In this document: piece by piece, positions 3,001 to 6,000 of the stretch
Numbering within the stretch: the stretch's first letter is position 1
Layout: each line of letters begins with the position of its first letter
DNA from: Escherichia coli O157:H7
Lineage (GTDB): Bacteria; Pseudomonadota; Gammaproteobacteria; Enterobacterales; Enterobacteriaceae
Assembly: GCF_013167455.1 (NCBI RefSeq)
Contig: NZ_CP038328.1
Direction: 5' to 3' (one strand)
DNA: 64,000 nt
Made by a program: the position numbers

Positions 3001-6000
3001 AAAACCATTGTTATGTATTACCTTTTTCCCATTATGGGGTGCTAATATTTCAAGAGGAAATAATACCCCCTAAAGTATCCTCAAAAGCAACTTGATACAG
3101 GTTGAGTCGGTTGACCCCTGTACACAAAGAAAGCCTGATATATAAGGGATTAAAAGGGGTTTTGTTGGTAAGCGTACAGCGAGGGCCGTATTGACGGGGA
3201 TGTGTTATTCAGCTGGCAGTGCTATGCGCCACGGAAGCAGTTCGCTGACCCGGTTGACCGGCCAGTCTGCTATGACGCCAAGCACATGGCGAAGGTAGCT
3301 TTCTGGATCCACGTCATTCAGTTTGCACGTCCCGATCAGGCTGTACAGTGGCGCTCCCCGCTCACCACCATGATCAGAGCCGAAGAACAGGAAGTTTTTA
3401 CGACCCAGACTGACCGCCCGCAGGGCATTTTCAGCGATGTTGTTGTCGATTTCCACCCAGCCATCGTTCGCATAGTACGTCAGTGCCGGCCACTGGTTAA
3501 GTGCGTACGCGAACGCCTTCGCCAACTCTGAGTGTCGCGACAGGGTCTTCATCTTTTCACGCAACCAGCTTTCCAGGGATTTCAACAACGGTTTCGTTTT
3601 TCGCTGACGTTCAGCAAGCCGCTGCTCTGCCGGCATTCCCCTTATATCCGCCTCTATGGCGTACAACTGACCGATCTGCTCCAGGGCTTCTTCCGTCAGT
3701 GCTGACGGGATGCGGACGTGCACATCGTGGATCTTTCGGCGGGCATGAGCCCAGCAGGCAGCTTCCGTTATCCCACCATTGCGATACAGCTCGTTGAACC
3801 CGGCGTACGCATCCGCTTGCAGCACACCGCTGAAGCAGGCAAGATGAGTCTGCGGATGGATGCCTTTTCTGTCCGGGCTGTAAGCGAACCACACTGCAGG
3901 TGCCAACGCTGACCCTGCATTGCGGTCATCACGAACATACGCCCACAATCGCCCGGTCTTCGTCTTCTTATTACCCGGCAGCAGTACCTGGACCGGGGTA
4001 TCATCGGCATGGAGTTTGCCGTCAGTCATGACATAGCCATGAAGCGCCTCTTCCAGCGGAGACAGCAGCCGGCAGCATGCATCCACCCAGCCCGACAGCA
4101 GTGAACGCCTCAGCTCCACACCTTGCCGGCCGTATATTTCTGACTGGCGATACAGCGGGGTGTGCTCTGCATACTTCGAGGTCAGCACGCGGGCCAGCAG
4201 CCCCGGTCCGGCGATACCCCGCTCGATGGGCCGCGAAGGTGCAGGTGCCTGCACGATGGCATCGCACTGAGTACAGGCATGTTTTTCCCGTACCGTCCGG
4301 ATAACCCGGAAGGCGCTACGCATCAACTCCAGCTGTTCGGCGGTATCCTCGCCCAGATAGCTCAGTGAACCGCCGCAGTTCGGGCAGCACGGCGCCGCAG
4401 GCAACAGTCGCTTTTCGTCACGGGGTAGTGATTCAGGGAACGGCTTACGGGTGCGGGTCTGACGCAACGGACGCTGTACTGCCGGGTCATACACCCTACC
4501 AGTCAGCGTATCGCTCTCTTTCTGAAGCCGGTTCAGATCGGCTTCCATTTGTGCGATACGGCGGGAGACTTTTTCGGAACGACTGCCGAAGTTCATCCGG
4601 CGGAGTTTATCCAGCTGCGCCTGCAGATGGTCTATTTCGCGCTCCCGGTTGCTCAGCTTTTCCTGCAGGGCGTGGATCAGCGCTTCCTGTTCGGCCAGGC
4701 GCTGTTTCAGCAGGAAGATGTCGTCAGAAGAGATGTCGTTCATAAGCCCGTATTTTACCGGGCTTATTCTGTGACAACCAGGATAAAGAGATTTACAGCA
4801 TGGTCAGGGAGGTCAGCAGCCGCTTAGGCTGTCGCCAGTCGATACCTTCCAGCAGCATCGCCAGCTGCGCCTGCGTAAGGAACACTTTGCCATCACGGGC
4901 TGACGGCCAGGCGAAGCGCCCACGCTCCAGCCGTTTGGTCAGGAGGCACAGTCCGTCACCGGTGGACCACAGCAGTTTAACCTGACTGCCGCTGCGGCCC
5001 CGGAAAATGAAAACATGGCCGGACATGGGATCGTCTTTCAGCGCCGTTTGTACTTTCGCAGCCAGGCCGTTGAAGCCATTTCTCATATCGGTGATACCGG
5101 CAACCAGCCAAATTTTGGTCCCGGAAGGTAACGGGATCATCGCTTCAGTTCCTGTATCAGCAGAGTCAGGAGCTTTTCGCTGACATTGCCATTGAAGCGG
5201 AGCGTCCCGTGCCGGAACGTTACCTCACAGCTGATACTGAGGGTTTCCGGGTCCTCTGCGAGCGATTCTGGCTGTTCGGCAGCTGCATCGAGAGTCACAG
5301 GAAGTAGCTGGGGGCTCTCTGAAGAAGGTAATAGCAGCTTTCCCTCGCGCCATTGTTGTCGCCATTTGAACAACAGATTGGCGTTAATGCCATTTTCAAG
5401 AGCAAGTTTTGAGATGGATATCCCGGGTTCACAGGAGGCAGCAACGAGCTGCTGTTTAAATTCGGGAGGATAATTAGGGCAGCCTTTTCGCCTGCCGGGA
5501 GTCACATTTTTCTGCATATCTGATACTTTGGTTCCCACTACTTATTTGGTGGACACCACTTTGTCTAATTCGTCAGATTCTGACCAGACGGTTCAGGCTG
5601 TACGCTTACTTTTGTTGACGTCGGGAGAGTTCAGAAGAGGAAGTTTGGCGGAGATCACAGGAGTCGAATATGATTATTAATGCATTGATTTTAAATGATT
5701 AATGCGTGTTGGATAAATGATTGACCCCCATAATAACCCCCAAATGACTTTACATGAGGGAATGAGGCTAAAATACACAATTGAATCAATTCTTAGAGAT
5801 TTTTGTGAAGGTAACATTCCTAGGTAGTGTCTGGCAATAATATCATTAAGCCTGTCAACCAGCTCTGGCTTTCTGAATGTGATGTGTGCGGGCCCTTCTT
5901 AAAGTATTTACTTGTCTTCATAGCGCTCTTTACCCTGAACGGACTGTAGGTGGTCATCCAGATTAATGGTGATATTCCCTCGGTTGTTGGGGAGCGGTTT

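Follow-up and report, generated by a model that had tools for sequence, protein, structure and literature searches.

An ISEc8 insertion in the old selC-LEE junction of Escherichia coli O157:H7

Among the closest described systems are tandem islands at tRNA genes, which arise by serial integration of P4/CP4-type elements, and the selC region of E. coli O157:H7 resembles them in that selC is intact and adjoined by an integrase, with a displaced copy of the selC 3′ end and an older island further on. The older island, the LEE, is found without these additions in strain E2348/69 and many EPEC, where the arm, the IS3-family remnant and espF that we describe here come directly after an intact selC. 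Since the E2348/69-type arm lies directly on an intact selC, the inner junction of O157:H7 represents the ancestral selC-LEE junction. The LEE is said to have been inserted about 16 bp downstream of selC, which fits the point at which homology with the K-12 backbone stops in the present sequence, 15 nt past selC (window position 10719). In O157:H7 this inner junction carries a copy of ISEc8, and no description of that insertion was found in PMC3893438, PMC2806823, PMC7545054, PMC3271280, PMC1188055 or PMC3408504.

The element and its surroundings

The window, that is, the whole stretch of 64,000 nucleotides that was analysed, is 100% identical to O157:H7 strain TR01 over region 2350-6400. Along the plus strand it runs from the end of the LEE (espB to espF) through an IS3-family pseudogene, ISEc8, a decayed CP4-like island and an integrase to selC and yicJ. 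The features are as follows.

1453-2340: espF, LEE end
2572-2887, minus strand: IS3-family (IS600-like) transposase pseudogene, between espF and the arm (RefSeq annotation and IS600 match)
2958-3159, minus strand: LEE-side arm, with homology to the stretch between selC and int in selC integrase islands
3160-3167, no strand: target-site duplication TTTTGTTG, left copy (direct reading; single copy in empty sites)
3168-5609, minus strand: ISEc8 (IS66 family), 2442 bp, complete (ends, ORFs, 99-100% identity to annotated copies)
3168-3189, no strand: IRR, terminal inverted repeat at the tnpC-distal end (22-nt arms, 82% complementary)
3205-4743, minus strand: tnpC, IS66-family transposase, 512 aa, ORF intact (NF033517, 458 bits, cut-off 180; WP_000998051.1)
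4793-5140, minus strand: tnpB, IS66 accessory protein, 115 aa (NF033819, 120 bits, cut-off 50; RefSeq annotation)
5137-5517, minus strand: tnpA, IS66 accessory protein, 126 aa (NF047595, 97.7 bits, cut-off 74; RefSeq annotation)
5588-5609, no strand: IRL, terminal inverted repeat at the tnpA-proximal end (inverted-repeat search)
5610-5617, no strand: target-site duplication TTTTGTTG, right copy (direct reading)
5618-5645, minus strand: 28-nt downstream flank of the selC remnant (5631-5645 attB-like, common to K-12; 5618-5630 island/LEE-type arm)
5646-5668, minus strand: selC′, the displaced selC 3′ end, 23 nt, corresponding to the 24 nt at the end of the gene (1-nt deletion, TGATC-TCCGCCA)
5669-9356, minus strand: body of the decayed CP4-like integrase island (DUF4942 pseudogene, DUF957, DUF5983, cbtA toxin, truncated yeeU, ISEc31)
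9357-10538, minus strand: tyrosine recombinase (P4/CP4-type integrase), 393 aa, apparently intact (PRK09692 domain, 317 bits)
10539-10733, minus strand: outer junction, made up of the arm upstream of int plus, adjoining selC, an attB-like flank of 15 nt (repeats, K-12 comparison)
10734-10828, minus strand: selC, intact tRNA-Sec gene (ARAGORN)

The element is a complete ISEc8 of the IS66 family and is already annotated in public genomes. Its bounds are given by GTAAGCGTACAGC at 3168-3180 and the reverse complement of this sequence at 5597-5609, and the resulting length of 2442 bp agrees with the length of ISEc8. The repeat search returned inverted arms of 22 nt that are complementary at 18 of the 22 positions (82%), with the outermost 13 nt perfect; they begin GTAAGCG..., and thus show the GTAA start that is a trait of the IS66 family. 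Directly on both sides of the element stands TTTTGTTG, a perfect 8-bp target duplication; two fixed 8-nt sites would agree exactly by chance with a probability of 4^-8, or about 1.5e-5.

Three intact ORFs lie on the minus strand of the element in the order A-B-C, overlapping or abutting, and in the profile search TnpA, TnpB and TnpC all exceeded the curated NCBIfam cut-offs. RefSeq labels the identical sequence 'IS66-like element ISEc8 family transposase', plus tnpA and tnpB, and over its full length the IS is 99-99.9% identical to copies on chromosomes and plasmids that bear the ISEc8 label. The name ISEc8, which the initial annotation had proposed from the sequence alone, is therefore borne out by RefSeq and by the NCBIfam IS66 profiles, while direct reading upholds both the length of 2442 bp and the intact 8-bp duplication. 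A second copy of ISEc8 is present in the window, with 99.7% identity to the LEE-adjacent copy and ATTGATAC on both sides. This second insertion is rare among genomes, and the place in TR01 that corresponds to it by coordinates has no IS.

The insertion site and the integrase island

The inner junction becomes apparent once ISEc8 is removed from the sequence, as positions 3067-3167 joined to 5618-5668 are then collinear with 10604-10757, at about 87-90% identity; the latter segment consists of the region upstream of the integrase and the last 24 nt of selC. The direct-repeat search likewise matched 3067-3167 to 10604-10705. Beyond the window, the LEE-side arm is 85% identical over 265 nt, as far as window position 2958, to the sequence between selC and int in cq9, a LEE-negative strain. 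A tblastn search of window positions 1-6200 with two selC integrases found no integrase remnant on the LEE side, and the place where a LEE-side integrase would be expected is taken by the IS3-family pseudogene, which is also present in E2348/69, O55 and O145. Because the arm resembles the int-promoter/arm region of selC integrase islands and has no integrase behind it, it is the relic of an integrase-bearing element.

The integrase island is bounded by a direct repeat, the 3′ end of selC at 10734-10757 being repeated at 5646-5668 with a 1-nt deletion, so that the repeat-bounded segment measures about 5 kb and selC′ is displaced by about 5 kb from the intact gene. A 24-mer search that allows mismatches only misses this remnant on account of the indel, and the remnant was assigned from gapped alignments. 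The same deletion in selC′ (TGATC-TCCGCCA) is shared by the IS-free genomes of O55:H7, O145:H28 and strain C325, and the decay of the core is therefore older than ISEc8. The integrase of the island is 96% identical to the selC integrase of cq9, with the HGFRHT motif and the Y of RGTYNH visible. Beside ISEc31 the island is missing its middle part, and its RefSeq annotation includes no excisionase.

These landmarks allowed us to place the insertion precisely. The inner copy of the 39-nt attB-like segment that is common to K-12 occupies 5631-5668, and ISEc8 sits 28 nt from the selC remnant and 13 nt beyond this segment; on the sense strand of selC, the target CAACAAAA occupies +29 to +36 past the end of selC′. 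The element thus splits the arm homology itself, not the boundary between core and arm, and lies outside the repeat-bounded island. The initial annotation had placed the insertion exactly at an inner att-like junction. The att-like scar and its homology are real; the exactness is not, given the distance of 28 nt from the remnant. It had also stated that the element parts the arm homology from the selC repeat, and this is the case for about 100-200 nt of int-proximal-type arm, which ISEc8 has severed and moved 2.4 kb from the selC′ core, while about 28 nt of flank stay with selC′.

Empty and occupied sites among related strains

To compare the locus with the selC-LEE junctions of relatives lacking the IS, as had been suggested earlier, the empty site was rebuilt in silico by deleting ISEc8 and one copy of TTTTGTTG, which left 518 nt. 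This empty site was found in 14 genomes at 99.8-100% over the 518 nt. The match was 100% in the O55:H7 strains CB9615, RM12579, DEC5D/E, TB182A and USDA5905, in the O157 strains 493/89 (sorbitol-fermenting), F3113 and PV15-279, and in strain 2013C-4465; it was 99.8% in DEC5A/B, LSU61 and FDAARGOS_946. Apart from 2013C-4465, these genomes can be grouped as O55:H7 or as early or atypical O157. LSU-61 has been described as an intermediate between O55:H7 and both O157 branches, and PV15-279 carries a pO157_2 plasmid resembling that of G5101 (PMC7175801). CB9615 has the same LEE end, island, integrase and selC as the window and differs by the absence of ISEc8 alone.

ISEc8 occupies the same site in 295 complete genomes, a census that is skewed to typical O157:H7 and makes both fixation and the exact branch of insertion approximate. 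Together, the identity of the empty sites and the 295 occupied ones show a real insertion that is specific to the typical O157:H7 lineage, and the simplest reading of these sequences would be that ISEc8 was gained once, on the branch that gave rise to this lineage. If the IS-free state of O55:H7 and early O157 were instead secondary, ISEc8 would have been lost precisely, for which recombination between the 8-bp duplicates offers a route possible in principle and nothing specific speaks. We find this hardly credible, since it needs repeated precise losses in every early-branching lineage and none among the 295 typical O157:H7 genomes; one gain asks for far fewer events and fits the stepwise model (PMC7175801).

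The distribution also bears on whether ISEc8 came with the integrase island. The two adjoin each other, and ISEc8 could have been an original part of a '933L prophage' of roughly 7.5 kb, the components of which arrived together. In the description of the EDL933 LEE by Perna et al. in 1998, the IS ORFs were reportedly counted within this prophage. Such a joint arrival has practically no chance of being correct, because O55:H7, 493/89, LSU-61 and PV15-279 have the island and the junction with a single TTTTGTTG and no IS, and because the position of ISEc8, between selC′ and the LEE, is outside the repeat-bounded segment. As an original component of the island, ISEc8 is refuted by the empty sites in island-carrying genomes.

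The selC-proximal slot varies among strains that share the inner junction. O145:H28 has the same inner junction with another P4-like satellite (primase-helicase, Icd-like, Ogr/Delta) in this slot, which in strain C325 is filled by a CP4-like island that has decayed less, and in strain Z1323HEC0422 an O157-type LEE lies directly on intact selC, followed by the inner-type flank.

We consider it very probable that a single ISEc8 transposition into the relic selC-LEE junction, followed by vertical inheritance, accounts for these observations, and that the insertion is most likely functionally neutral. The anatomy of the locus, the empty site, the spread among genomes, the homologies and the lack of a far-end repeat are seen directly in the sequences; both the order of events and the neutrality are what we infer. 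According to this model, the LEE at selC would already have been immobile before ISEc8 arrived, having neither a far-end site nor an integrase of its own. A CP4-like island would have integrated into selC in the O55/O157 lineage, duplicating the last ~24 nt of selC, and would thereby have moved the displaced selC copy and the old selC-LEE junction about 5 kb inward; the junction would now be internal because the integrase island entered selC later. A single transposition would then have brought ISEc8 into non-coding DNA 29-36 nt downstream of selC′, after the split from O55:H7, sorbitol-fermenting O157, LSU-61 and PV15-279-type strains, and the insertion would have been inherited vertically ever since. 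It interrupts no gene.

Mobility of the LEE and of the integrase island

A functional consequence had been proposed for the insertion, namely that ISEc8 inactivates an inner attachment site that was still functional, so that the LEE and the integrase island are locked together. Several features of the locus are in line with this proposal: ISEc8 parts the selC′ core (5646-5668) from the bulk of the arm-type homology (2958-3159), the integrase of the adjoining island seems to be intact, and the arm of that island and the LEE-side arm share about 87% identity. There is likewise no sign of island loss in the IS-bearing lineage, as a chimeric query in which ISEc8 and its 28-nt flank were joined to intact selC was matched in 0 of 5426 genomes, a result that does not separate the hypotheses. 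The IS-free genomes of the O55:H7/early-O157 lineage all keep the island as well.

Locking of the LEE presupposes a second site, and the LEE has none. Its far end was searched in TR01 (14 kb) for 24-mers with up to 3 mismatches and by short-word blastn with both att regions, and no selC repeat was found; the searches returned 10-mers at chance level only. At this end, K-12 homology resumes inside setC, and about 1.6 kb of backbone is missing, including the start of setC. Because the far end is without a selC repeat, there is no pair of sites able to excise the LEE, alone or together with the island, and, judging from the sequence, the LEE could not excise site-specifically whether ISEc8 is present or absent. 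The claim that ISEc8 locks the LEE to the integrase island is thus not supported, given the lack of a far-end partner site and of an integrase belonging to the LEE.

Nor did the comparison support the proposed inactivation of the inner attachment site. The sites for excision of the island alone would be the selC core (10734-10757), the selC′ core (5646-5668) and the arms inside the island, and ISEc8 lies on the outer flank of this set, 13 nt past the attB-like segment, leaving the distal core and the internal arm untouched. A K-12-type attB shares nothing beyond +15 nt, and the DNA displaced by ISEc8 is therefore probably dispensable for the island site. The 1-nt deletion in selC′ is older than the insertion, and the island itself has no annotated excisionase gene and has been gutted by ISEc31.

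Published experiments on two strains, both of which carry the IS, did not show excision of the region: Sakai yielded no sign of a circular form for any SpLE (PMC2669165), and in PA20 nothing was amplified with primers pointing outward from SpLE4 (PMC5931665). Since the published tests cover only such strains, the absence of excision cannot be credited to ISEc8. Taken together, these points make the locking of LEE and island by ISEc8 very improbable, and an effect of the element on island mobility is not supported by anything that we found.

The LEE-side arm might still have been a substrate of the neighbouring CP4-type integrase in an O55:H7-like ancestor, for example in an Int-mediated exchange or replacement of the selC-proximal island, at which the unlike islands that O145:H28 and O157 carry next to the same inner junction could hint. 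In that case ISEc8 would have ended the exchange and frozen the selC region of typical O157:H7; we allow this a very small chance. If the neighbouring integrase did still use those arm sites, some recombination reaction would have been lost through ISEc8. Under the single, neutral transposition that we favor, the effect of the element is most likely limited to the provision of one extra patch of ISEc8 homology.

Comparison with known islands

The insertion is an ordinary IS66-family transposition into a non-coding att relic; it is already known and matters little. What is refined here is its position and timing, since ISEc8 is a separate, later insertion in the old selC-LEE junction, outside the island of about 5 kb. 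The '933L' unit, usually drawn as one segment of 7.5 kb, accordingly comprises an integrase island of about 5 kb and a separate IS. The presence or absence of ISEc8 at this site is also a clean marker that distinguishes typical O157:H7 from O55:H7, sorbitol-fermenting O157, LSU-61 and PV15-279-type strains. The view of LEE mobility is unchanged, as the features required for site-specific excision had already gone from the LEE at selC.

When set beside the ISEc8 of O157:H7 genomes, including the LEE-adjacent copy, the element agrees in its three ORFs, its repeats and its 8-bp duplication, and no difference was found. The selC-LEE junction of E2348/69 differs from that of O157:H7 in that it has neither the integrase island nor ISEc8 and adjoins an intact selC. 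From the tandem islands at tRNA genes, the array at selC in O157:H7 differs in that it contains a LEE without an integrase and without a far-end repeat; only the proximal island is bounded by repeats, and its inner core carries the 1-nt deletion.

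Copies of ISEc8 at the two sites

Besides the ISEc8 copy at the old selC-LEE junction (3168-5609), the window carries a second copy that is 99.7% identical to it and lies about 29 kb away:

34894-37256, minus strand, same orientation as the first copy: second ISEc8 copy

The tnpC ORF of this second copy is broken because of an internal deletion of 79 bp. An intact 8-bp target duplication of its own (ATTGATAC) surrounds the element, which is flanked by a YeeE/YedE-family gene on one side and a PerC-family regulator gene on the other. Since this site is occupied in only 3 of the 5426 complete genomes (F6667, 10205 and F8798), the second copy is a recent insertion that is specific to a strain group.

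The first ISEc8 site is also occupied in the O157 strain 180-PT54 (NZ_CP015832.1, 130209-134273). The match to the 4-kb query spanning the occupied site was only 96.9% identical and approximately 14 bp longer, which suggests that the copy in 180-PT54 has diverged or been converted.

The inner junction and its adjoining islands

The displaced selC 3′ remnant at the inner junction (5646-5668) has a 1-nt deletion that is common to O157, O55:H7, O145:H28 and C325, even though the islands adjoining this junction vary: one is a CP4-like remnant, another a P4-like satellite and a third a full CP4-like island. The inner junction could have stayed fixed while the proximal island was replaced, or else the elements might have had a common attP that bore the deletion.

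The genes that strain C325 carries between int and yeeU, among them the ones encoding Ag43, antirestriction and RadC/JAB-like proteins, have been lost from the island in the window. Two features mark this region, where ISEc31 adjoins both the integrase gene and the truncated yeeU, and the neighbouring cbtA toxin gene is intact:

7881-8045: yeeU antitoxin gene, 5′-truncated
8042-9258: ISEc31 (IS3-family)

The LEE flank and espF in related strains

The end of the LEE in the window includes espF:

1453-2340: espF, product of 295 aa

EspF is 248 aa in TR01 (an O157:H7 strain identical to the window over 2350-6400), C325 and Z1323HEC0422, and the difference from the window corresponds to exactly one additional proline-rich repeat of 141 bp (47 aa). 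The repeat array in the window has 4.2 copies at 99% identity (TRF).

Strain Z1323HEC0422 has a different arrangement at selC:

NZ_CP148339.1, 3501-4064: O157-type (gamma) LEE directly on intact selC

Here the intact selC is followed by the inner-type downstream flank, and the EspF and EspB proteins of this LEE are identical. This could be the ancestral state that preceded the island, or the island could have been cleanly excised; the sequence fits both.
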